Shown: positions 4,013 to 55,887 of the stretch, piece after piece | How the letters are laid out: each line of letters opens with the position of its first letter | Position numbering within the stretch: the stretch's first letter is position 1 | Source: Eledone cirrhosa | Taxonomy: Eukaryota | Reading direction: 5' to 3' | Assembly (NCBI GenBank): GCA_964016885.1 | Contig: OZ024749.1 | Location: 54,374,001 to 54,438,000, forward strand | DNA length: 64,000 nt | The notes under the pieces: generated by a model | The model's input: the letters and a program-made list of their open reading frames with translations, nothing else | Told to the model about the DNA's origin: nothing | Database searches by the model: none | Program-made: the position numbers and the translations under genes

Positions 4013-4437
4013 GTGTTGGTCTTGTTTGCTGGTGGTGGTGTTGGTGGTGTTGTTGGTGGTGGTGTTGGTGGTAGTGTTGGTGTTGTTGGTGGTGGTGTTG
4101 GTGGTGGTGTTGATGGTAGTGTTGGTGGTGGTGTTGGTGGTGTTCGTGTTGGTGGTGTTGATGGTAGTGTTGGTGTTGTTGGTGGTGGTGTTGTTGGTGT
4201 TGTTGGTGGTAGTGTTGGTGTTGTTGGTGGTGGTGTTGGTGGTGTTGATGGTAGTGTTGGTGTTGTTGGTGGTGGTGTTGTTGGTGTTGTTGGTGGTAGT
4301 GTTGGTGTTGTTGGTGGTGGTGGTGGTGTTGGTGTTGGTGGTGGTGGTGTTGGCGGTGGTGTTGGCGGTGGTGGTGTTGGCGGTGGTGTTGGCGGTGGTG
4401 GTGGTGGTGGTGTTGGCGGTGGTGTTGTTGGTGTTGT
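4013..4437. repeat. (GGT/GTT)n trinucleotide microsatellite
   Basis: Seen directly; source of the poly-Gly/Val and His/Gln pseudo-ORFs. Confidence 0.95.
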
Positions 4438-5298
4438 GTGAGAGAAAGTGAGTGAATGTGAGTGAGAGAGTGAGTGAATGTGAGTGAGAGAGTGAGTGAA
4501 TGTGAGTGAGAGAGTGAGTGAATGTGAGTGAGAGAGTGAATGAATGTGAGTGAGAGAGTGAGTGAGTGAGTGAATGTGAGTGAGAGAGTGAGTGAATGTG
4601 AGAGAGTGAGTGAATGAATGTGAGTGAGAGAGTGAATGAATGTGAGTGAGAGAGTGAGTGAGAGAGTGAGTGAGTGAATGTGAGAGAGTGAGTGAATGAA
4701 TGTGAGAGAGTGAGTGAATGAATGTGAGTGAGAGAATGAATGAATGTGAGTGAGAGAGTGAGTGAATGTGAGAGAGTGAGTGAATGAATGTGAGTGAGAG
4801 AATGAATGAATGTGAGTGAGAGAATGAATGAATGTGAGTGAGAGAGTGAGTGAATGTGAGTGAGAGAGTGAGTGAATGTGAGAGAGTGAGTGAATGTGAG
4901 TGAGAGAGTGAATGAATGTGAGTGAGAGAGTGAATGAATGTGAGTGAGAGAGTGAATGAATGTGAGTGAGAGAGTGAGTGAATGTGAGAGAGTGAGTGAA
5001 TGAATGTGAGTGAGAGAGTGAATGAATGTGAGTGAGAGAATGAATGAATGTGAGTGAGAGAGTGAGTGAATGTGAGAGAGTGAGTGAATGTGAGTGAGAG
5101 AGTGAATGAATGTGAGTGAGAGAGTGAATGAATGTGAGTGAGAGAGTGAATGAATGTGAGTGAGAGAATGAATGAATGTGAGTGAGAGAGTGAGTGAATG
5201 TGAATGTGAATGAGAGTGAATGTGAATGAGAGTGAGAGTGAGAGAGAATGAGAGAGTGTGTGAATGTGAGTGAGAGAGTATGAATGTGAGTGAGTGAG
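4438..5298. repeat. Compound GAGT/GAAT/GA satellite
   Basis: Units such as gtgagtgagagagtgagtgaat repeated with variation. Confidence 0.95.
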
Positions 5299-5990
5299 TT
5301 TCTTTTTTCTCGGTTCAACAATTAATGGAAGAAACTGACAGATTTCTCTTGTCGTTTTGTAGACAGTGTAATCAGCGCCACCTACTTTAATTATTAAATG
5401 CAGTGTAAATGAGACTGTAACTGTTTATATATAACCACCTTTGGCGCTATCTTTCAGCCATTTGCCTAAAATGGCCACCATTACAAGCTATAAGTATCTC
5501 TCATTCGACCTGCTTAACTTAATAAACATCGAATTTGTCTTCCAAGCAAAATTATTCAAGTGGAAAATTTAGAACTTCAGTAAATCTATTAAATGGTTGA
5601 CTTGCTCCGCCACCCCTACCTCTCCCTCCACTTTCTCTACCTCTTTTTCTTCTCTTTCTTTGGTCTACTTTCATCTTCCACCTCTTCTACTACTACTACT
5701 ACATCGTCTACTCCTGCTACTCCTCCTTTCCCAGTTCTCCATTTTCGTCAACGTTTTCTACTTCTCATCATTATCACCACCACCATCATCACCATCACTA
5801 CCACCACCACCATTATCACCACCACCAACATCACCATCACCACCACCACCATCATCATCTATATAGCCACTGTCTTCAATCTCGCTACCATCATCATCAT
5901 TGTTACCATATCCACATTATCATCTTTATCGTCTTCATCGTTGTGTGAGGGAGAGAGTGTGTGTATGGATATATGTATGTGTGAGTAAGG

Positions 5991-9683: not shown

Positions 9684-9689
9684 ATATAC

Positions 9690-9726
<37 letters not shown>

Positions 9727-10269
9727 CATATATATACATACATACATATATACATATATATACATATACATACATATATACATATATATACATATACATA
9801 CATATATATACATATACATACATATATATACATACATACATATATACATATACATACATATATATACATACATACATACATATATATACATACATACATA
9901 TATACATATACATACATATATATACATACATACATATATACATATATATACATACATACATATATACATATATATACATACATACATATATACATATATA
10001 TACATACATACATATATACATATATATACATATATATACATACATACATATATATACATATATATACATACATACATATATATACATATATATACATACA
10101 TACATATATACATATATATACATACATACATATATACATATATATACATACATACATATATACATATATATACATACATACATATATATACATATATACA
10201 TACATATATATATATACATACATATATATATACATACATATATATATACATACATATACATATACATAC

Positions 10270-10305
<36 letters not shown>

Positions 10306-11170
10306 ATACACACATATATATATACACACATATATATATACACACATATATATATACACACATATATATATACACACATATATATATACACTTATATATA
10401 TACACATATATATATATACACATATATATATATACACATATACACATATATATATATACACATATACACATATATATACATATACACATATACACATATA
10501 TATACATATATATATATACACATATATATACATATATATACACATATATATACATATATATATATACACATATATATATACATATATATATACATATACA
10601 TATATATACATATATATATACATATATATATACACATATATATATACACATATATACACATATATATACACACATATATATACAATATATATACACATAT
10701 ATATACACATATATATACACATATATATACACATATATACATATATATACATATATATACACATATATATATACATATATACACATACATATATATATAT
10801 ACATATATATACACATATATATATACACATATATATACACATATATACACATATATACACATATATATATACATATATACACATATATATATACATATAT
10901 ACACATACATATATATATATACATATATATACACATATACATATATATATATACATATACATACATACATATATATATACATATATACATACATATATAT
11001 ACATATACATATATATATACATATATACATACATATATATACATATACATATATACATACATACATATACATATATACATACACATATATACATACATAC
11101 ATATACATACATATATATATATATATATACATATACATACATATATATATATACATATACATACATATAT
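9684..11170. repeat. TA/TACA compound microsatellite (about 1.5 kb)
   Basis: Seen directly; abuts the 3' end of the element at 11171. Confidence 0.97.
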
Positions 11171-11578
11171 ATGGTGGCTGCCAACTCGTTTTCGAGTACG
11201 GCCACTACTTTATATCCATGTAGGAGAACCCCTACCGATGCGCTGAACAAGTGTGACTTTTTAGTCCAGCCAGCGACTTGAAAACTCTGGTACAAACACT
11301 ACACCTGTGACAATTATTGACACATAGTGCTGGGCCCATGGTACCATGTGACGACAAGTGCAGAGAGATCTCCAGATATAAAGCAATGCCTGTGCCGTAA
11401 AGCTTTTATAGTGAGCAAAGGCACTGCACAAAACCAGTCCCACTCTCTTAACCAAGATGATATTTACCAAAAACAAGAACAAGTCAACATCATTGGATAC
11501 CATCAGGGTTGCAGGTGTTATATCAGAGTTTTCCTTCTCCTAGAATTCTGCCTTGACAAAGGCTAAGGGGTCATCTCC
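11171..11578 (-). mobile_element. 5'-truncated copy of the bipartite RTE-derived element
   Basis: Near-identical (about a dozen differences) to 13633-14040. Confidence 0.75.
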
Positions 11579-11580
11579 CC

Positions 11581-11783
11581 ATACATATACATACATACAT
11601 ATATATATATATATACATATACATACATACATATATATATATATATACATATACATACATACATATATATATATATATACATATACATACATACATATAT
11701 ATATATATATACATATACATACATACATATATATATATACATACATACATACATACATACATACATACATACATACACATACA

Positions 11784-11849
<66 letters not shown>

Positions 11850-11850
11850 T

Positions 11851-11883
<33 letters not shown>

Positions 11884-11889
11884 TATACA

Positions 11890-11955
<66 letters not shown>

Positions 11956-11956
11956 T

Positions 11957-11989
<33 letters not shown>

Positions 11990-11995
11990 TATACA

Positions 11996-12031
<36 letters not shown>

Positions 12032-12084
12032 TATACATACATACATACATATATATATATATATACATACATATATATATATAT

Positions 12085-12181
<97 letters not shown>

Positions 12182-12196
12182 CATATATATATATAT

Positions 12197-12227
<31 letters not shown>

Positions 12228-12294
12228 CATACATATATATATATATATATATACATACATATATATATATATATACATACATATATATATATAT

Positions 12295-12325
<31 letters not shown>

Positions 12326-12656
12326 CATATACATACATATATATATATACATATACATACATATATATATATACATATACATACATATATATATATACAT
12401 ATACATACATATATATATATACATATACATACATATATATATATACATATACATACATATATATATATACATATACATACATACATATATATACATATAC
12501 ATACATACATATATATATATATATACATATACATACATACATATATATATATATATACATACATACATATATATATATACATATACATACATATATATAT
12601 ATATATACATATACATACATATATATATACATATACATATACATACATATATATAT

Positions 12657-12687
<31 letters not shown>

Positions 12688-12690
12688 CAT

Positions 12691-12721
<31 letters not shown>

Positions 12722-12860
12722 CATATACATACATATATATATATATACATATACATACATATATATATATATACATATACATACATATATATATATATAT
12801 ACATATACATACATATATATATATATATACATATACATACATACATATATATATATACAT

Positions 12861-12893
<33 letters not shown>

Positions 12894-13632
12894 CATATAC
12901 ATACATATATATATATATATATATACATATACATACATATATATATATATATATATACATATACATACATACATATATATATATATATACATATACATAC
13001 ATACATATATATATATATACATATACATACATACATATATATATATATACATATACATACATACATATATATATATATACATATACATACATACATACAT
13101 ATATATATACATATACATACATACATATATATATATATACATATACATACATACATATATATACATATACATACATACATATATATACATATACATACAT
13201 ACATATATATACATATACATACATACATATATATACATATACATACATACATATATATACATATACATACATACATATATATACATATACATACATACAT
13301 ATATATACATATACATACATACATATATATACATATACATACATACATATATATACATATACATACATACATATATATACATATACATACATACATATAT
13401 ATACATATACATACATACATATACATATACATACATACATATATATATATATACATATACATACATACATATACATACATACATACATATATATATACAT
13501 ACATACATACATATATATATACATATACATACATACATATATATATACATATACATACATACATATATATATACATATACATACATACATATATATACAT
13601 ATACATACATACATATATATACATATACATAC
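11581..13632. repeat. TA/TACA compound microsatellite (about 2 kb)
   Basis: Seen directly. Confidence 0.97.
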
Positions 13633-14240
13633 ATGGTGGCTGCCAACTCGTTTTCGAGTACGGCCACTACTTTATATCCATGTAGGAGAACCCCTACCGA
13701 TGCGCTGAACGAATGTGACTTTTTAGTCCAGCCAGCGACTTGAAAACTCTGGTACAAACACTACACTTGTGACAATTATTGACACATAGTGCTGGGCCCA
13801 TGGTACCCTGTGACGACAAGTGCAGAGATCTCCAGATACAAAGCAATGCCTGTGCCGTGAAGCTTTTATAGTGAGCAAAGGCACTGCACAAAGCCAGTCC
13901 CACTCTCTTAACCAAGATGATATTTACCAAAAAGAAGAACAAGTCAACATCATTGGATACCATCAGGGTTGCAGGTGTTATATCAGAGTTTTCCTTCTCC
14001 TAGAATTCTGCCTTGTCAAAGGCTAAGGGGTCATCTCTCCCGGTGATTTTGGATGGCCATTGACTCTTAAGAGCTCCTTTGCCCTTTGACAGGTTTTGTT
14101 TTTAGTCCTGCAGGATGTCCAAAGTCACCCTCCTCACCAAGAAACCTTGGTGGGGTTGCCAGTTTAGTCGCCAACGACCCGACCATGAGACAGGTTGTAC
14201 TGGGATACATGTTACCAGTAGCACCAACTGGTGACCTGAC
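13633..14240 (-). mobile_element. Non-autonomous bipartite RTE-derived element (5'UTR-like part joined to 3' end)
   Basis: Minus strand has an RTE-5'UTR-like segment (gcgactaaactggcaacccc...ggagaaggaaaactctgat), then a C2H2 finger [22 protein letters not shown] typical of RTE/BovB-type C-termini, a short 3'UTR and an (ATGT)n tail. No RT or EN domain. Confidence 0.65.
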
Positions 14241-14388
14241 ATATACATATACATACATACATATATATATACATATACATACATACATATATATACATAT
14301 ACATACATACATCTATATACATATACATACATACATATATATATATATATACATATACATACATATACATACATACATCTATATACAT

Positions 14389-14421
<33 letters not shown>

Positions 14422-14562
14422 CATATACATACATATACATACATACATCTATATACATATACATACATACATATATATATATATATACATATACATACAT
14501 ACATATATATATATATATACATATACATACATACATATATATATATATATACATATACATAC

Positions 14563-14594
<32 letters not shown>

Positions 14595-15403
14595 ATACAT
14601 ATACATACATATATACATATACATACATATATATATATATACATATACATACATATATATATACATATACATACATACATATATATATATATACATACAT
14701 ATATATATACATATACATACATATATATATATATACATATACATACATACATATACATACATATACATATACATACATATACATACATATACATATACAT
14801 ACATATACATACATACATATACATATACATACATACATATATATATATACATATACATACATATATATATATACATATACATACATACATATATATACAT
14901 ATACATACATACATATATATATATATACATATACATACATACATATATATATATATACATATACATACATACATATATATATATATACATATACATACAT
15001 ACATATATATATATATACATATACATACATACATATATATATATACATATACATACATACATATATATATATATACATATACATACATACATATATATAT
15101 ATATACATATACATACATACATATATATATATATACATATACATACATACATATATATACATATACATACATATACATACATACATATATATACATATAC
15201 ATAAAATACATATATATACATATACATACATACATATATATACATATACATACATACATTTATATACATATACATACATACATATATATACATATACATA
15301 CATATATATACATATACATACATACATATATATACATACATACATACATATATACATATACATACATACATATATATATACATATATACATATATATACA
15401 TAT
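14241..15403. repeat. TA/TACA compound microsatellite
   Basis: Seen directly. Confidence 0.97.
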
Positions 15404-15464
15404 AATGCATCCATAATTGACGCGTAGAATAAATAAATACATGTGCAGGTGAGAGTCTGTATGT

Positions 15465-22413: not shown

Positions 22414-22689
22414 CACTTGTATAAATATTTATATTCGCCAGACGATAAATGACTGACTCGGCACATGTATAAATATATGCAGATATACAAAGATATTTAG
22501 ATATTCACATATTTTTTCATATATAAATAATTGTCAATGTGTGTATGTGTGTGTGTGTATATATATATATATTTGTACATAGATATGTATATAATATTTT
22601 TTCATATATTTGCACACACATACATACATATATTTATTCATATACACACGTATATTTATGCATATGCATGCATGTATGTATGTATATAT

Positions 22690-26398
<3,709 letters not shown>

Positions 26399-26722
26399 GC
26401 ATGTATGTATATGTATATATGTATGTATTTATGTATACATGTATGTATGTATTTATGTATATATGTATGTATGTATATAAGTAGAGACAAACAATGAGGA
26501 ATGTAGGTTTCTATGTCTGTGAAAGTATAATAGCCTGTCACCAAAGACTGCGATAGTCACTGTTGTACTCAAATACACGAATCAGCCGTTCCTTGCACTT
26601 GAATGTTTCAAACGGAATCACTTCTACACACAATTGAACTGATGCTATACAACTCCTTAATGTCTGTCTATTCCCTTTCAATCTTGGCAAATATTTTTAC
26701 AGTCAAGTGAATATATACATTT

Positions 26723-31750: not shown

Positions 31751-32253
31751 CATACATATACATATACATACATATACATATACATATATATATATACATA
31801 TATATATATACATACATATACATATATACATACATATACATATATATATATACATACATATACATATATATATATACATACATATACATATATATATATA
31901 CATACATATACATATATATATATACATACATACATATACATATATATATATACATACATATACATATATATATATACATACATATACATATATACATATA
32001 TATATACATATATATATACATATATATACATATATATATATACATACATATACATATATACATATATATATACATATATATATATACATACATATACATA
32101 TATACATATACATATATATATATATATATATACATATATATACATATATATATACATATATATATACATATATATACATATATATATATACATACATATA
32201 CATATATACATATATATATACATATATATATATACATACATATACATATATAC

Positions 32254-32285
<32 letters not shown>

Positions 32286-32347
32286 ATACATATACACATA
32301 TATATATACATATATATATATACATACATATACATATATACATATAC

Positions 32348-32402
<55 letters not shown>

Positions 32403-32413
32403 CATATATATAT

Positions 32414-32458
<45 letters not shown>

Positions 32459-32838
32459 CATATATATATATACATATATATATATACATATATATATATA
32501 CATATATATATATACATATATACATATACATATATATATATACATATATACATATACATATATATATATACATATACATATATACATATATACATATATA
32601 CATATATACATATATATATATACATATATACATATATACATATATATACATATATATATATACATATATATATATACATATATATATATACATATATACA
32701 TATATATATATATATACATATATATATACATATATATATATACATATATATATACATATATATATACATATATATATATACATATATACATATATATATA
32801 TACAATACATATATATATATACATATACATATATACAT

Positions 32839-32871
<33 letters not shown>

Positions 32872-33428
32872 TATATATATACATATATATATACATATAT
32901 ATATATACATATATACATATATATATATACATATATACATATATATATATACATATATACATATATATATATACATACATATACATATATACATATACAT
33001 ATATATATATACATATACATATATATATACATATATATATATACATATATATATACATATATATATATACATATATATATATACATATATATATATACAT
33101 ATATATATATACATATATATATATACATATATATATATACATATATATATATACATATATATATATACATATATATATATACATATATATATATACATAT
33201 ATATATATACATATATATATATATACATATACATATATATATATACATATACATATATATACATATACATATATATACATATACATATATATATATACAT
33301 ATATACATATACATATATATATATACATATATATACATATATATACATATATATACATACATATATATATATACATATACATATATACATATACATATAC
33401 ATATATATATATACATATATATATATAC

Positions 33429-33465
<37 letters not shown>

Positions 33466-33566
33466 CATATATATACATACATATACATATATACATATAC
33501 ATATATACATATACATATATACATATATATATATATACATACATATATATATATACATATATATAT
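31751..33566. repeat. TA/TACA microsatellite (about 1.8 kb) directly after the LINE tail
   Basis: Seen directly. Confidence 0.97.
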
Positions 33567-33631
33567 GTTTATATATGTTTATAGGCGGCGAAGTGACGGA
33601 GTTATGAGAACGTCAGATAGAATGCTTTGCA

Positions 33632-33718
<87 letters not shown>

Positions 33719-40909: not shown

Positions 40910-41648
40910 TATACATACACACACACACATATATATATATTATACATACACACACACACATATATATTATACACACACACACGCAATTCAAATACAGGTA
41001 TGTACAACATTCCCACAGACATTAAATATGACATATGTAACACACACATAACCCAGTTGTCTACACTCACACATACATAATTCAAATACACACCCACACA
41101 TTTACACACAAGTAATCCAATTATCCACACACACACATACACACACACACGTACCCCAATTGCCCCCCCCCCCCTACACACAAACGTAATCCAGTTGTCC
41201 ACATACAACACAGGGGGGAAAAAAATCAATATAAACACACACACCCACACACACTCACAGACACACAGCGTCACACACTCACACACAGTCACACAGAGTC
41301 ACACACACTCACACACACAATCTCACACACACACACACACACAACAAAGTTTTGTGTCTGTTTCAACAGAAATATTAAAAAATATAAGAAAAGAAAAAAA
41401 GAAAAAAGAGGAAGAAAACTAAGGAAAACTAGAAAAAAGTGAAATGTAAGCCGTGAGTGGGGAATGGCACCTGAGATGACAGGTGAGACCAGGTGAGAGA
41501 GAGAGAGAGAGAGAGAATATAGTAATCCAGGTGAGGGAGAGAGTAGAGTCGTATAGTCCAGGTGAGAGAGAGAGAATATAGTAGTCCAAGTGAGAGAGAG
41601 AGAATATAGTAGTCCAGGTGAGAGAGAGAGATAGACAGAGAATATAGT

Positions 41649-44580
41649 AGTGTGGTCCAGGTGAGACTGGGGGAATAGTGTGGTCCAGGTGAGACTGGGG
41701 GAATATAATAGTGTGGTCCAGGTGAGACTGCGGGGATATAATAGTGTGGTCCAGGTGAGACTGGGGGAATAGTGTGGTCCAGGTGAGACTGCGGGAATAT
41801 AATAGTGTGGTCCAGGTGAGACTGGGGGAATAGTGTGGTCCAGGTGAGACTGGGGAAATATAATAGTGTGGTCCAGGTGAGACCGGGGGAATAGTGTGGT
41901 CCAGGTGAGACTGGGGGAATAGTGTGGTCCAGGTGAGACTGGGGGAATATAATAGTGTGGTCCAGGTGAGACCGGGGGAATAGTGTGGTCCAGGTGAGAC
42001 TGGGGGAATATAATAGTGTGGTCCAGGTGAGACCGGGGGAATAGTGTGGTCCAGGTGAGACTGGGGGAATATAATAGTGTGGTCCAGGTGAGACCGGGGG
42101 AATAGTGTGGTCCAGGTGTGACCGGGGGAATAGTGTGGTCCAGGTGAGACTGGGGGAATATAATAGTGTGGTCCAGGTGAGACCGGGGGAATAGTGTGGT
42201 CCAGGTGAGACTGGGGTAATAGTGTGGTCCAGGTGAGACCGGGGGAATAGTGTGGTCCAGGTGAGACTGGGGGAATATAATAGTGTGGTCCAGGTGAGAC
42301 CGGGGGAATAGTGTGGTCCAGGTGAGAGCGGGGGAATAGTGTGGTCCAGGTGAGACTGGGGGAATATAATAGTGTGGTCCAGGTGAGACCGGGGGAATAG
42401 TGTGGTCCAGGTGAGACTGGGGGAATAGTGTGGTCCAGGTGAGACTGCGGGAATATAATAGTGTGGTCCAGGTGAGACTGCGGGAATATAATAGTGTGGT
42501 CCAGGTGAGACCGGGGGAATAGTGTGGTCCAGGTGAGACTGGGGGAATAGTGTGGTCCAGGTGAGACTGGGGGAATAGTGTGGTCCAGGTGAGACCGGGG
42601 GAATAGTGTGGTCCAGGTGAGACTGCGGGAATATAATAGTGTGGTCCAGGTGAGACTGGGGGAATAGTGTGGTCCAGGTGAGACTGCGGGAATAGTGTGG
42701 TCCAGGTGAGACTGGGGGAATATAATAGTGTGGTCCAGGTGAGACCGGGGGAATAGTGTGGTCCAGGTGAGACTGCGGGAATAGTGTGGTCCAGGTGAGA
42801 CTGGGGGAATATAATAGTGTGGTCCAGGTGAGACCGGGGGAATAGTGTGGTCCAGGTGAGACTGGGGGAATAGTGTGGTCCAGGTGATACTGGGGGAATA
42901 TAATAGTGTGGTCCAGGTGAGACCGGGGGAATAGTGTGGTCCAGGTGAGACTGGGGGAATATAATAGTGTGGTCCAGGTGAGACCGGGGGAATAGTGTGG
43001 TCCAGGTGAGACTGGGGGAATATAATAGTGTGGTCCAGGTGAGACCGGGGGAATAGTGTGGTCCAGGTGAGACTGGGGTAATAGTGTGGTCCAGGTGAGA
43101 CCGGGGGAATAGTGTGGTCCAGGTGAGACTGGGGGAATATAATAGTGTGGTCCAGGTGAGACCGGGGGAATAGTGTGGTCCAGGTGAGACCGGGGGAATA
43201 GTGTGGTCCAGGTGAGACTGGGGGAATATAATAGTGTGGTCCAGGTGAGACCGGGGGAATAGTGTGGTCCAGGTGAGACCGGGGGAATAGTGTGGTCCAG
43301 GTGAGACTGGGGGAATATAATAGTGTGGTCCAGGTGAGACCGGGTGAATAGTGTGGTCCAGGTGAGACTGGGGGAATAGTGTGGTCCAGGTGAGACTGCG
43401 GGAATATAATAGTGTGGTCCAGGTGAGACTGCGGGAATATAATAGTGTGGTCCAGGTGAGACCGGGGGAATAGTGTGGTCCAGGTGAGACTGGGGGAATA
43501 GTGTGGTCCAGGTGAGACCGGGGGAATAGTGTGGTCCAGGTGAGACTGCGGGAATATAATAGTGTGGTCCAGGTGAGACTGGGGGAATAGTGTGGTCCAG
43601 GTGAGACTGCGGGAATATAATAGTGTGGTCCAGGTGAGACTGGGGGAATAGTGTGGTCCAGGTGAGACTGGGGGAATATAATAGTGTGGTCCAGGTGAGA
43701 CCGGGGGAATATAATAGTGTGGTTCAGGTGAGACCGGGGGAATAGTGTGGTCCAGGTGAGACTGCGGGAATATAATAGTGTGGTCCAGGTGAGACTGGGG
43801 GAATAGTGTGGTCCAGGTGAGACTGGGGGAATATAATAGTGTGGTCCAGGTGAGACTGGGGGAATAGTGTGGTCCAGGTGAGACTGGGGGAATATAATAG
43901 TGTGGTCCAGGTGAGACTGGGGGAATAGTGTGGTCCAGGTGAGACTGGGGGAATAGTGTGGTCCAGGTGAGACTGCGGGAATATAATAGTGTGGTCCAGG
44001 TGAGACTGCGGGAATATAATAGTGTGGTCCAGGTGAGACCGGGGGAATAGTGTGGTCCAGGTGAGACCGGGGGAATAGTGTGGTCCAGGTGAGACCGGGG
44101 GAATAGTGTGGTCCAGGTGAGACTGCGGGAATATAATAGTGTGGTCCAGGTGAGACTGGGGGAATAGTGTGGTCCAGGTGAGACTGCGGGAATATAATAG
44201 TGTGGTCCAGGTGAGACTGGGGGAATAGTGTGGTCCAGGTGAGACTGGGGGAATATAATAGTGTGGTCCAGGTGAGACCGGGGGAATATAATAGTGTGGT
44301 CCAGGTGAGACCGGGGGAATAGTGTGGTCCAGGTGAGACTGCGGGAATATAATAGTGTGGTCCAGGTGAGACTGGGGGAATATAATAGTGTGGTCCAGGT
44401 GAGACTGGGGGAATAGTGTGGTCCAGGTGAGACTGGGGGAATATAATAGTGTGGTCCAGGTGAGACTGGGGGAATAGTGTGGTCCAGGTGAGACTGGGGG
44501 AATAGTGTGGTCCAGGTGAGACTGGGGGAATAGTGTGGTCCAGGTGAGACTGCGGGAATATAATAGTGTGGTCCAGGTGA
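41649..44580. repeat. 28/33-bp minisatellite, roughly 95 units
   Basis: Unit agtgtggtccaggtgagac(t/c)g(g/c)gggaat with optional ataat. Degenerate (GA)n-containing monomers flank it at 41480-41648 and 44580-45020. Confidence 0.97.
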
Positions 44581-51234: not shown

Positions 51235-51635
51235 TCCGTCAACTCCGACGACGAATATTCCAGTTAATCAGATCAACGAAACAGCCCACTCGTGAAATTT
51301 ACCTGCAAGTGGCTAAGGATTCTAGAGACATACATTTGACGTAGTTCTCAGGGAGATTCAGCGTAACACTGTGCGTGACAAGACAGGCACATAAAATTAC
51401 AGGTTTTCATTATATATAAAAAGGATCGATAGACTTTCGTCAAATCGGACCGAGGAAACAATGTTTCCGTTAGTCTTTCCAGTTGCTAAAACTATCTATC
51501 TGTCACAACTCCAGGTAGAAGGAGCAACGTGAAATAAAGTGTCTTGCTCAAGGACATAACGCATCAACCGGTCCAGGAATCGAACTCACAACCTCAAGAT
51601 TGTGAATTCAATTCTCTAACCACTCAGCCTCCACT
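51235..51635 (-). mobile_element. SINE family B copy, interrupted
   Basis: Matches 59720-60030 (gtgtcttgctcaaggac...ggaatcgaactcacaacc). Confidence 0.7.
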
Positions 51636-51759
51636 AAGTGTGTGTGTGGGGGGGGGGGAGTTTTATAAATAAATATTTTATAAACAAATTTGTTGAGTGC
51701 TTTATATCAGTTATAAAAATATTTTGCTTGTTGTATCCCAACAAATTAAATATAACCTC

Positions 51760-51802
<43 letters not shown>

Positions 51803-52004
51803 TAAAATCTTTTCCTGAGTCCTGTATTTTCGTTGCTCTAGTGATGCGGCTGGGCTGCCGATCGCTATATTTGATTTGCTAAGCTGTCTAAATGTATTGT
51901 TATTACTCTGGGGTACTTTTCCCCATCCGAGTGCTAAAGCTACAGACCGAATTTGCATTCGTTAGCTTGGCCGCGAACTAAAGCTTCGTTAGTGCTGTAC
52001 TAAA

Positions 52005-52044
<40 letters not shown>

Positions 52045-52182
52045 TTGTTGAGTGACCAGATCGATGCTGGAGTCGGGTCCATAACTTCCATATGTGACCT
52101 TGAGCCATTCATCTGCGAAACGTGCGTAATGGGACGATACGCAACATAAACAACATGTAAACGAAATTTTACCGTTTTATTT

Positions 52183-52237
<55 letters not shown>

Positions 52238-52473
52238 AGTATGCATGTATACGTACATACATATATGTATACAGACGTACAGTAGCATGCACATATATAT
52301 ATATATATACACATATATATACATATGCATACAGGTACACATACATATATGCACGTATCAGTTTAGCGGCGCTAACGTCGCTTTGTTCGTTTGTAAACAA
52401 ACTGAACAGCCTGAATTTATGCCATACGGTGTTAAGGCAACCACGTCACCTTTTTGTTCAACACTGACACAGG

Positions 52474-52518
52474 AACGATGTACTAGTTTCAAGCTTGTTA
52501 GCTATCATCAGCACCGTT
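52474..52518 (-). ncRNA. Type I hammerhead ribozyme motif, copy 1
   Basis: Minus strand AACGGTG-CTGATGA-T-AGCT-AACA-AGCT-T-GAAA-C-TA-GTA^-CATCGTT. Confidence 0.8.
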
Positions 52519-52939
52519 TACCCATCTGCCAGATAGTTGAACGTTCGAAAGTATATACTTTCCTTATGAAAATTAACGGCTGAGCAGCCTAATTTGCATA
52601 TTGAGTGAGTTAAATCGGTCAGGCATACCGAAAACGATAAATTGAAACAAAATGAAAACGAAATTTCATTTCTCACTCTTAGTATGGCACTTACTTAAAT
52701 GTAAGTATGCATGTATACGTACATACATATATGTATACAGACGTACAGTAGCATGCACATATATATATATATATACACATATATATACATATGCATACAG
52801 GTACACATACATATATGCACGTATCAGTTTAGCGGCGCTAACGTCGCTTTGTTCGTTTGTAAACAAACTGAACAGCCTGAATTTATGCCATACGGTGTTA
52901 AGGCAACCACGTCACCTTTTTGTTCAACACTGACACAGG

Positions 52940-52984
52940 AACGATGTACTAGTTTCAAGCTTGTTAGCTATCATCAGCACCGTT
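52940..52984 (-). ncRNA. Type I hammerhead ribozyme motif, copy 2
   Basis: Identical motif, 466 bp further. Confidence 0.8.
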
Positions 52985-53407
52985 TACCCATCTGCCAGAT
53001 AGTTGAACGTTCGAAAGTATATACTTTCCTTATGAAAATTAACGGCTGAGCAGCCTAATTTGCATATTGAGTGAGTTAAATCGGTCAGGCATACCGAAAA
53101 CGATAAATTGAAACAAAATGAAAACGAAATTTCATTTCTCACTCTTAGTATGGCACTTACTTAAATGTAAGTATGCATGTATACGTACATACATATATGT
53201 ATACAGACGTACAGTAGCATGCACATATATATATATATATATACACATATATATACATATGCATACAGGTACACATACATATATGCACGTATCAGTTTAG
53301 CGGCGCTAACGTCGCTTTGTTCGTTTGTAAACAAACTGAACAGCCTGAATTTATGCCATACGGTGTTAAGGCAACCACGTCACCTTTTTGTTCAACACTG
53401 ACACAGG

Positions 53408-53452
53408 AACGATGTACTAGTTTCAAGCTTGTTAGCTATCATCAGCACCGTT
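53408..53452 (-). ncRNA. Type I hammerhead ribozyme motif, copy 3
   Basis: Identical motif, 468 bp further. Confidence 0.8.
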
Positions 53453-53873
53453 TACCCATCTGCCAGATAGTTGAACGTTCGAAAGTATATACTTTCCTTA
53501 TGAAAATTAACGGCTGAGCAGCCTAATTTGCATATTGAGTGAGTTAAATCGGTCAGGCATACCGAAAACGATAAATTGAAACAAAATGAAAACGAAATTT
53601 CATTTCTCACTCTTAGTATGGCACTTACTTAAATGTAAGTATGCATGTATACGTACATACATATATGTATACAGACGTACAGTAGCATGCACATATATAT
53701 ATATATATACACATATATATACATATGCATACAGGTACACATACATATATGCACGTATCAGTTTAGCGGCGCTAACGTCGCTTTGTTCGTTTGTAAACAA
53801 ACTGAACAGCCTGAATTTATGCCATACGGTGTTAAGGCAACCACGTCACCTTTTTGTTCAACACTGACACAGG

Positions 53874-53918
53874 AACGATGTACTAGTTTCAAGCTTGTTA
53901 GCTATCATCAGCACCGTT
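53874..53918 (-). ncRNA. Type I hammerhead ribozyme motif, copy 4
   Basis: Identical motif, 466 bp further. Confidence 0.8.
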
Positions 53919-54339
53919 TACCCATCTGCCAGATAGTTGAACGTTCGAAAGTATATACTTTCCTTATGAAAATTAACGGCTGAGCAGCCTAATTTGCATA
54001 TTGAGTGAGTTAAATCGGTCAGGCATACCGAAAACGATAAATTGAAACAAAATGAAAACGAAATTTCATTTCTCACTCTTAGTATGGCACTTACTTAAAT
54101 GTAAGTATGCATGTATACGTACATACATATATGTATACAGACGTACAGTAGCATGCACATATATATATATATATACACATATATATACATATGCATACAG
54201 GTACACATACATATATGCACGTATCAGTTTAGCGGCGCTAACGTCGCTTTGTTCGTTTGTAAACAAACTGAACAGCCTGAATTTATGCCATACGGTGTTA
54301 AGGCAACCACGTCACCTTTTTGTTCAACACTGACACAGG

Positions 54340-54384
54340 AACGATGTACTAGTTTCAAGCTTGTTAGCTATCATCAGCACCGTT
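54340..54384 (-). ncRNA. Type I hammerhead ribozyme motif, copy 5
   Basis: Identical motif, 466 bp further. Confidence 0.8.
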
Positions 54385-54574
54385 TACCCATCTGCCAGAT
54401 AGTTGAACGTTCGAAAGTATATACTTTCCTTATGAAAATTAACGGCTGAGCAGCCTAATTTGCATATTGAGTGAGTTAAATCGGTCAGGCATACCGAAAA
54501 CGATAAATTGAAACAAAATGAAAACGAAATTTCATTTCTCACTCTTAGTATGGCACTTACTTAAATGTAAGTAT

Positions 54575-54618
54575 ACGGTGCTGATGATAGCTAACAAGCT
54601 TGAAACTAGTACATCGTT
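54575..54618 (+). ncRNA. Type I hammerhead ribozyme motif, copy 6 (at the inversion junction; lacks the extended 5' stem)
   Basis: ACGGTG-CTGATGA(54581-87)-TAGCTAACAAGCTT-GAAA(54602-05)-CTAGTA^(54611)-CATCGTT. Confidence 0.78.
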
Positions 54619-55039
54619 CCTGTGTCAGTGTTGAACAAAAAGGTGACGTGGTTGCCTTAACACCGTATGGCATAAATTCAGGCTGTTCAGTTTGTTTACA
54701 AACGAACAAAGCGACGTTAGCGCCGCTAAACTGATACGTGCATATATGTATGTGTACCTGTATGCATATGTATATATATGTGTATATATATATATATATG
54801 TGCATGCTACTGTACGTCTGTATACATATATGTATGTACGTATACATGCATACTTACATTTAAGTAAGTGCCATACTAAGAGTGAGAAATGAAATTTCGT
54901 TTTCATTTTGTTTCAATTTATCGTTTTCGGTATGCCTGACCGATTTAACTCACTCAATATGCAAATTAGGCTGCTCAGCCGTTAATTTTCATAAGGAAAG
55001 TATATACTTTCGAACGTTCAACTATCTGGCAGATGGGTA

Positions 55040-55084
55040 AACGGTGCTGATGATAGCTAACAAGCTTGAAACTAGTACATCGTT
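55040..55084 (+). ncRNA. Type I hammerhead ribozyme motif, copy 7
   Basis: Complete motif with the extended stem I flanks. Confidence 0.8.
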
Positions 55085-55505
55085 CCTGTGTCAGTGTTGA
55101 ACAAAAAGGTGACGTGGTTGCCTTAACACCGTATGGCATAAATTCAGGCTGTTCAGTTTGTTTACAAACGAACAAAGCGACGTTAGCGCCGCTAAACTGA
55201 TACGTGCATATATGTATGTGTACCTGTATGCATATGTATATATATGTGTATATATATATATATATGTGCATGCTACTGTACGTCTGTATACATATATGTA
55301 TGTACGTATACATGCATACTTACATTTAAGTAAGTGCCATACTAAGAGTGAGAAATGAAATTTCGTTTTCATTTTGTTTCAATTTATCGTTTTCGGTATG
55401 CCTGACCGATTTAACTCACTCAATATGCAAATTAGGCTGCTCAGCCGTTAATTTTCATAAGGAAAGTATATACTTTCGAACGTTCAACTATCTGGCAGAT
55501 GGGTA

Positions 55506-55550
55506 AACGGTGCTGATGATAGCTAACAAGCTTGAAACTAGTACATCGTT
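55506..55550 (+). ncRNA. Type I hammerhead ribozyme motif, copy 8
   Basis: Complete motif, 466 bp further. Confidence 0.8.
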
Positions 55551-55847
55551 CCTGTGTCAGTGTTGAACAAAAAGGTGACGTGGTTGCCTTAACACCGTAT
55601 GGCATAAATTCAGGCTGTTCAGTTTGTTTACAAACGAACAAAGCGACGTTAGCGCCGCTAAACTGATACGTGCATATATGTATGTGTACCTGTATGCATA
55701 TGTATATATATGTGTATATATATATATATATGTGCATGCTACTGTACGTCTGTATACATATATGTATGTACGTATACATGCATACTTACATTTAAGTAAG
55801 TGCCATACTAAGAGTGAGAAATGAAATTTCGTTTTCATTTTGTTTCA

Positions 55848-55887
<40 letters not shown>

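Follow-up and report, generated by a model that had tools for sequence, protein, structure and literature searches.

How a non-coding repeat that carries a predicted self-cleaving motif returns to the genome, and how its copies come to lie head to head, is the question raised by an array of hammerhead motifs in the cephalopod Eledone cirrhosa. The array is located in a stretch of 64,000 nucleotides (contig OZ024749.1 of assembly GCA_964016885.1, forward-strand positions 54,374,001 to 54,438,000), referred to here as the window. From the letters of the stretch alone it had been originally predicted to be a simple tandem array of a metazoan retrozyme of the kind without long terminal repeats (non-LTR). 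The array is one head-to-head insertion of a high-copy non-coding hammerhead repeat, which we consider likely to be a non-LTR retrozyme that Neptune-type Penelope-like elements (PLEs) copy from RNA with their enzymes. Non-LTR retrozymes, regarded as non-autonomous PLEs, are a known kind of element; in the window's family the evidence from the insertion sites is unusually clear.

Insertion ends and targets

The array contains eight hammerhead cores; the five at 52511, 52977, 53445, 53911 and 54377 lie on the minus strand, and the other three, at 54581, 55047 and 55513, on the plus strand. It is not, as first described, a simple tandem array: the two arms meet 5′-to-5′ at about 54574, within a (TA)n tract, and the array is flanked on the left and on the right by (TA)n. 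The spacing of 466 bp given for the cores is general, with one instance of 468, and of the eight motifs taken as identical seven are so, the copy at 54581 losing the top of stem I to the inversion junction. Units differ from each other by one 2-nt TA insertion alone, so that the near-perfect identity noted for them stands. Its interpretation as the product of one rolling-circle event is weak, since even copies unlinked to the window array are free of differences from its unit over 230 nt, and local duplication has enlarged at least one array. With position 1 of the unit set at the base that follows the predicted cut (window 55078), the 3′ end of the minus arm falls at position about 248 (end A) and that of the plus arm at position 310 (end B), and the 5′ ends are at about 239 and about 430, respectively. 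The unit is without reverse transcriptase (RT) or LTR structure. The lack of protein-coding potential attributed to it holds in the sense that only short frames are present, although the longest ATG frames across two units reach 48 aa (sense) and 112 aa (antisense); 19 PLE open reading frames (ORFs) gave no match in the window by tblastn. Three features had escaped the original prediction, namely the inversion, the targeting of (TA)n and the fixed position of the two 3′ ends, and they suggest the participation of PLE machinery.

The ends were analyzed in loci found via the hammerhead or a nearby anchor, mostly in the first 70 Mb of one contig. The 116 loci yielded 198 arms located away from the locus edges. 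End A closes 71 of these and end B 92; another 19 stop within the internal TA block, and the remaining 16 have an end that is unresolved or lies elsewhere. Ends A and B are 62 nt apart in the window's family (the tails of older subfamilies measure 54-59 nt by eye), and TA repeats follow 66/71 A ends and 85/92 B ends (151/163 together). The 5′ ends are scattered along the unit. Opposite adjacent arms were joined 5′-to-5′ in 63 cases and converged in one. Twenty of these 63 inverted pairs were set aside for an unresolved end. In the other 43 each arm ends at A or B; the combination is A+B in 42 of them and A+A in a single pair, or A+B in 41/42 when a duplicated locus enters the count once (P 2e-11 against 0.5). 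The paired arms vary freely in length and 5′ position. A target-site duplication was not discernible inside (TA)n, as likewise remarked in the published account of related elements (PMC8557442). Fixed 3′ ends, 5′ truncation, an optional tail, head-to-head inversion and a microsatellite target were all found, and they are the traits of a non-autonomous PLE. The dispersed arrays with permuted ends that had been expected are dispersed, with 3′ ends that are fixed and not permuted.

The family is large and young. The exact 41-mer of the motif has 10,032 copies in the genome (3.0 Gb) and its reversed control none, which is far beyond chance; the degenerate core has 27,416 copies (controls 0), and an anchor for an older subfamily 4,366 matches (control 0). 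Unit length is about 420 to 540 bp among copies, the variation coming mostly from the internal TA block. The youth of the family makes distances within and between arrays uninformative.

A second hammerhead family, with a 310-bp unit and 7,395 hammerhead matches genome-wide, has no significant similarity to the window's family outside TA-rich stretches. It presents the same hammerhead fold on different stems, including a U.U mismatch and a palindromic helix III, and in 8/8 of its inverted pairs a short end is combined with a long one, both in (TA)n, with a tail of about 26-35 nt. Its arms are very young and contain up to 27 nearly identical units (L067:5900-8400, L185:1-1500, L213-L222), and a 308-bp variant, of which 77 copies are spread over 9 sites, makes up the two arms of L220 uniformly. 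Rolling-circle copying could be tested more cleanly on the 310-bp family than on that of the window. Older relatives of it, 69-82% identical, were observed at L199:1832-2205, L072, L114 and L110.

The genome also harbours autonomous PLEs, and GIY-YIG matches are abundant in it (of 10,597 candidates, 150 were scored). Long PLE frames carry RT, a CX2-5CxxC linker and GIY-YIG, and this order is the Neptune/Nematis layout as given in PMC8557442; an open RT-endonuclease frame of 938 aa is found at L101. Members of the Neptune-type families (L101, L102, L104, L106, L107, L115 and L117) are 87-98% identical in protein, have (TA)n targets and two alternative ends, and the inverted copies at L106, L107, L115 and L117 run, as judged by eye, with one short and one long end into (TA)n. 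PLE tails across four families measure 62, 39, 44 and 58 nt. Tail length was rejected as a clue to the partner of the retrozyme: the 62 nt of the L101/L106 family equals that of the window, a weak argument given the older-subfamily tails and the 58 nt of another family. Retrozyme copies beside PLE ORFs (L113, L095 and L111) were also considered as a partner link, and are read as independent insertions into TA tracts. Minimal hammerhead-like motifs lie 3′ of the ORF in some Neptune-type PLEs, the motif of the L101 family looking degenerate. The link between retrozyme and PLE rests here on insertion anatomy; homology to a PLE was not found in the 50 PLE loci compared.

The hammerhead motif

The full motif of the plus arm is built from a lower stem I, a 3-nt loop, a 6-bp stem I, the core, a 4-bp stem II over the U.U mismatch and a palindromic stem III of 1-2 bp. 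The conserved core and the NUH cut site are present, and the helix lengths (6 bp for I, 4 bp for II and 1-2 bp for III, the last with a palindromic loop) match the canonical animal type I description. By its fold the motif is a canonical metazoan type I hammerhead for which cleavage is predicted, with plus-strand cut sites that coincide with those originally given (Table 1). The UAN loop of stem I and a loop II ending in A are kept in both hammerhead families; they may have a role in a tertiary contact between loops 1 and 2. In canonical type I hammerheads, a short palindromic helix III favours paired (dimeric) cleavage in tandem repeats, according to PMC4209133. Among axolotl hammerheads, HHR_Amex1 shares the palindromic helix III, and HHR_Amex2 shares the U.U beneath helix II and is active: its monomer cleaves to 22% in 1 h and its dimer better (PMC7229834). 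The mismatch had been correctly observed, but the caution that it may slow cleavage is weakened by this example. In a minor subfamily (L124, L131, L193, L195 and L113) C and A replace the U.U under helix II, and the cut triplet is mostly GUU instead of GUA.

Stem pairing was analyzed in 94 of 103 distinct motifs, chosen by core pattern and including three from the second family, after nine truncated or shifted rows were dropped. Paired cells amount to 93.9% and a two-sided change is observed in 10/16 pairs, which exceeds all 500 shuffles and all slid controls, the counts being inflated by kinship among motifs. The clearest covarying pair, in stem I, is G.U in 39, U.G in 27 and A-U in 18 of the 94 motifs, and is split by subfamily. 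The older subfamily was represented by 29 loci retrieved with an anchor outside the ribozyme (30 were returned and one overlapping locus was dropped). Its majority sequence differs from the window unit at 66/359 positions overall, at 3/44 in the hammerhead and at none in the fixed core, the three changes affecting one stem I pair, loop II and core position 7, a free position. The original assignment to the metazoan non-LTR retrozymes is supported by the canonical type I fold and its covarying stems, the tandem units and the about 27,000 dispersed cores.

Template, priming and rival explanations

We propose a cycle in which tandem copies are likely transcribed and the transcripts probably self-cleave, best as paired hammerheads since stem III is short and palindromic. 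A host ligase may then join the ends of cut monomers; for retrozymes of axolotl and mussel, PMC7229834 reports that RtcB circularised the monomers in vitro. The RT and GIY-YIG endonuclease of a PLE, likely of Neptune type, would very probably act in trans, nicking a TA tract and starting reverse transcription at the internal position A (about 248) or B (310). For the two-armed insertions we favour a single event in which both target strands are primed, one at A and the other at B, and the truncated cDNAs are joined head to head at their 5′ ends. Some arrays later enlarge by local DNA duplication, as L180 shows.

The nature of the template can be approached from the cut site. Copying a cut linear monomer from A or B would give products that stop at position 1 and lose the ribozyme. 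The 20-mer located just downstream of the cut has 28,456 copies in the genome and the 20-mer spanning the cut 27,147. Among the first 100 downstream matches ten are without a spanning match, and by eye eight of these have mutated or variant cores, one starts 9 nt upstream and one at the cut. Only 1/198 arms starts within 5 nt of the cut. Since the cut site is read through, the template would be a ligated circle or an uncut multimer and not a cut monomer. Very young arms of the window's family reach 15 hammerheads, and variants private to an insertion, within the sample, are common to all units of both arms in L067 (7/7) and L039 (4/4). Taking into account: (i) the conserved ribozyme; (ii) the lack of a 5′-end pile-up at the cut; (iii) the long very young arms, and (iv) the variants common to both arms, we lean towards monomers ligated to circles as the usual template, which the RT could copy more than once around.

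Several results weigh against the proposed retrozyme mobilised by PLE enzymes. Regarding the motif, the Rfam check suggested with the original prediction did match a hammerhead, Hammerhead_HH9, at 18.5 bits, below the gathering value of 52 (E 0.046), and RF00163 was not listed, one best match being kept per clan; a sub-gathering score is rather a limit of the model than a defining trait of the class. Predicted folding of the 57-nt motif does not surpass that of shuffles (z -1.2), and its minimum-energy fold lacks stem III; in the 29 older-subfamily loci, conservation elsewhere in the unit is about equal to that of the hammerhead. In Xenopus, 1/9 retrozyme dimers cleaved in vitro (10.64898/2026.07.22.740005), and hammerhead mutants left insertion by an anole PLE unaffected in vitro (PMC11167929). 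Regarding the anatomy, 69/198 5′ ends sit in a bin that includes ends hidden in the TA block, and the A+A pair and the 20 pairs left out count in the same sense. The unit showed no sequence similarity, besides nested copies, to 50 PLE loci, a small sample of the 10,597 GIY-YIG candidates. Regarding the circle, 110/126 variants private to a multi-unit insertion occur in some units only, in a broad set of young insertions, which later mutation can explain, and a periodicity of two or three units in L180, L111, L067 and L065 does not fit the copying of one monomer.

The alternative that survives best also implies PLE mobilisation, with an uncut linear read-through multimer as template, a hammerhead that is weak or acts as a protein-binding fold, no circle, and arrays regrown by local DNA duplication. 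The read-through of the cut site fits it equally, as do the weakness of stems II and III, the dimer or trimer periodicity of the four arrays, and the observation that an anole PLE used mainly unprocessed RNA in vitro (PMC11167929). Growth by local duplication is indicated in L180, as its variants occur nowhere else and its repeat breaks in the TA block; a dimeric circle was ruled out for this locus, the break not being at the cut. However, an uncut multimer leaves unexplained a full canonical fold with compensatory changes in two unrelated families, and partial cleavage would stack 5′ ends at the cut, an accumulation that was not seen. The very young arms of 15 and 27 nearly identical units in the two families and the uniformity of the 308-bp variant across the L220 arms argue in the same direction. 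We therefore regard this alternative as possible but rather unlikely, the circle being retained as the usual candidate template.

In L065 both inverted arms carry a rare stem II variant, each time within the same context of three units, compatible with a multimeric template or with conversion from arm to arm. The haplotype of L066 is present at one other locus, L229, that holds one full unit, and descent may have gone either way. Several A>G differences lie in or beside the internal TA hairpin of the unit (L229, L064 and L033); outside the TA block no excess of A>G indicative of A-to-I editing was found (4 vs 10, 13 vs 24 and 12 vs 8 T>C).

For the inversion, the main rival is fold-back self-priming, or an antisense template, in place of priming on both target strands. 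Fold-back was proposed for rotifer Penelope elements from junction palindromes (PMC3846280), and here junction overlaps of 13-29 nt are found in L042, L068, L144, L159 and L184 and many junctions lie inside the self-complementary TA block. Such a mechanism gives no reason for a stop at the other fixed end, yet A+B is found in all but one of the singly counted pairs, a rule that it does not predict. Moreover, length and 5′ position are free to differ between the two arms, and for the anole PLE, PMC11167929 describes cutting and extension of both strands, with two internal starting sites. Hence fold-back priming appears improbable, and priming of both strands is preferred. Spread of an ordinary satellite, or of an element moving at the DNA level, with no RNA step and with a hammerhead that is a relic or due to chance, would agree with the local duplication in L180 and with the lack of a strand-biased substitution pattern betraying an RNA stage, but is largely refuted by the end analysis, and is very improbable given the fixed 3′ ends with variable 5′ ends, the thousands of dispersed sites, the design shared with RT-encoding PLEs and the stem covariation. 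Finally, assembly is difficult where identical units lie in TA-rich DNA, and single TA-length differences may be errors, but an assembly or read fold-back artefact is hardly conceivable for arms with different outer ends and unique flanks, an asymmetric design repeated in 63 pairs, old diverged copies included, and a unit that is present, with its variants, in contigs of an independent public run. Contigs from two of four runs covered the stretch.

Features of the window and relation to known elements

The coordinates of the array are collected in Table 1. The best 150 of 465 Rfam matches in the window are all microRNA models aligned to TA repeats, score below gathering and were discarded as spurious; matches of this kind arise in the internal TA/CA-rich block of the unit. 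The left flank consists of stacked dispersed repeats (51500-51630, 51680-51800, 51800-52035 and 52060-52190), each of which matches other sampled loci; the last one ends T-rich at the left TA tract of the array and may be another element of such type. Much of the window is filled by TA-rich and other minisatellite arrays with periods of 4-89 (9684-15415, 22558-26479, 31752-33713, 41648-44560 and 4435-5299).

Table 1. Features of the hammerhead array in window coordinates, and loci elsewhere with higher-order periodicity
Feature	Position	Strand	Remarks
Left (TA)n tract	52186..52233		Likely target
Minus arm	52233..54574	-	5 hammerheads, 4 full units; 3′ end is short end A
Hammerhead	52470..52524	-	Predicted cut after 52481
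Hammerhead	52936..52990	-	Predicted cut after 52947
Hammerhead	53404..53458	-	Predicted cut after 53415
Hammerhead	53870..53924	-	Predicted cut after 53881
Hammerhead	54336..54390	-	Predicted cut after 54347
5′-to-5′ inversion junction	54571..54575		Few bases compatible with both arms
Plus arm	54575..55853	+	3 hammerheads, 2 full units; 3′ end is long end B
Hammerhead lacking top of stem I	54575..54622	+	Predicted cut after 54611; loss due to the inversion
Full type I hammerhead	55034..55088	+	Predicted cut after 55077
Reference unit	55078..55543	+	466-nt cut-to-cut monomer; highly self-paired by prediction
Internal TA/CA-rich block	55206..55314	+	Length variable among copies; long hairpin predicted
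Hammerhead	55500..55554	+	Predicted cut after 55543
Tail between ends A and B	55792..55853	+	62 nt; at outer end of plus arm only
Right (TA)n tract	55851..55884		
Loci with higher-order periodicity	L180:2290-4230; L111 with L192; L067:2270-5400; L065 with L191		

The non-LTR retrozymes of coral, mussel and axolotl are, as the repeat described here, tandem non-coding units with a canonical type I hammerhead, a GC content under 50% and thousands of copies (PMC7229834). Their units of 150-450 bp compare with the 420-540 bp of the window's family, and the head-to-head arms, the two fixed ends and the targeting of (TA)n are not among the traits described for them in the accessible part of that account. 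Circles and cleavage were demonstrated for those retrozymes; in the window's family cleavage is predicted and circles are plausible. Vertebrate retrozymes, considered as non-autonomous PLE derivatives, share with it the co-occurrence with PLEs, mostly short arrays and a proposed local amplification, and their range of 51-972 bp includes the length of the window's unit; the vertebrate link is based on co-occurrence and on pLTR homology in Xenopus (10.64898/2026.07.22.740005), whereas here it is based on the anatomy of the insertions.

PLEs that carry the endonuclease (EN+, such as Neptune and Naiad) resemble the family in their partial tandems, inverted 5′-truncated copy, optional and often one-ended tail and microsatellite targeting, and non-autonomous multicopy derivatives such as Chlamys MRC1 exist (PMC8557442, PMC3846280). 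Unlike the EN+ PLEs as described there, the window's family has no ORF, its hammerhead is canonical and not minimal, both arms can be multimeric, and the tail is of 54-62 nt instead of the usual 30-40. The Anolis Poseidon PLE, as characterized in vitro, has two internal RT starts that bound the tail and an AT-rich target, as here, and cuts and extends both strands; however, Poseidon is autonomous and belongs to another clade, and both strands make the same use of start sites, whereas the genomic pairs described here almost always use one site each (PMC11167929).

A connection between retrozymes and PLEs has been published as a proposal (PMC7229834) and, by homology, in Xenopus (10.64898/2026.07.22.740005), and the return of animal retrozymes to the genome has so far been argued mainly from co-occurrence and pLTR homology. 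A full-text literature search, in which subscription papers and supplements are poorly covered, returned no paper on cephalopod retrozymes and no count of the A+B rule. In Eledone cirrhosa two unrelated retrozyme families, with young copies in the thousands, and several autonomous Neptune-type PLE families of one genome have in common a countable rule, one short and one long end in each insertion with two arms. The origin of the inverted-plus-tail structure of PLEs is named as an open question in PMC8557442. As a tentative answer, a paired Neptune RT-endonuclease might nick both strands of the TA tract and prime at A and B of a ribozyme-made circle, with each RT rolling independently. If true, the circle model of retrozymes and the unexplained structure of PLEs would be united in one mechanism, with start sites mapped in two unrelated families. 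From the A+B rule the RT start sites can be predicted exactly, L101 provides a candidate enzyme, and the role of a circle as template becomes directly testable.

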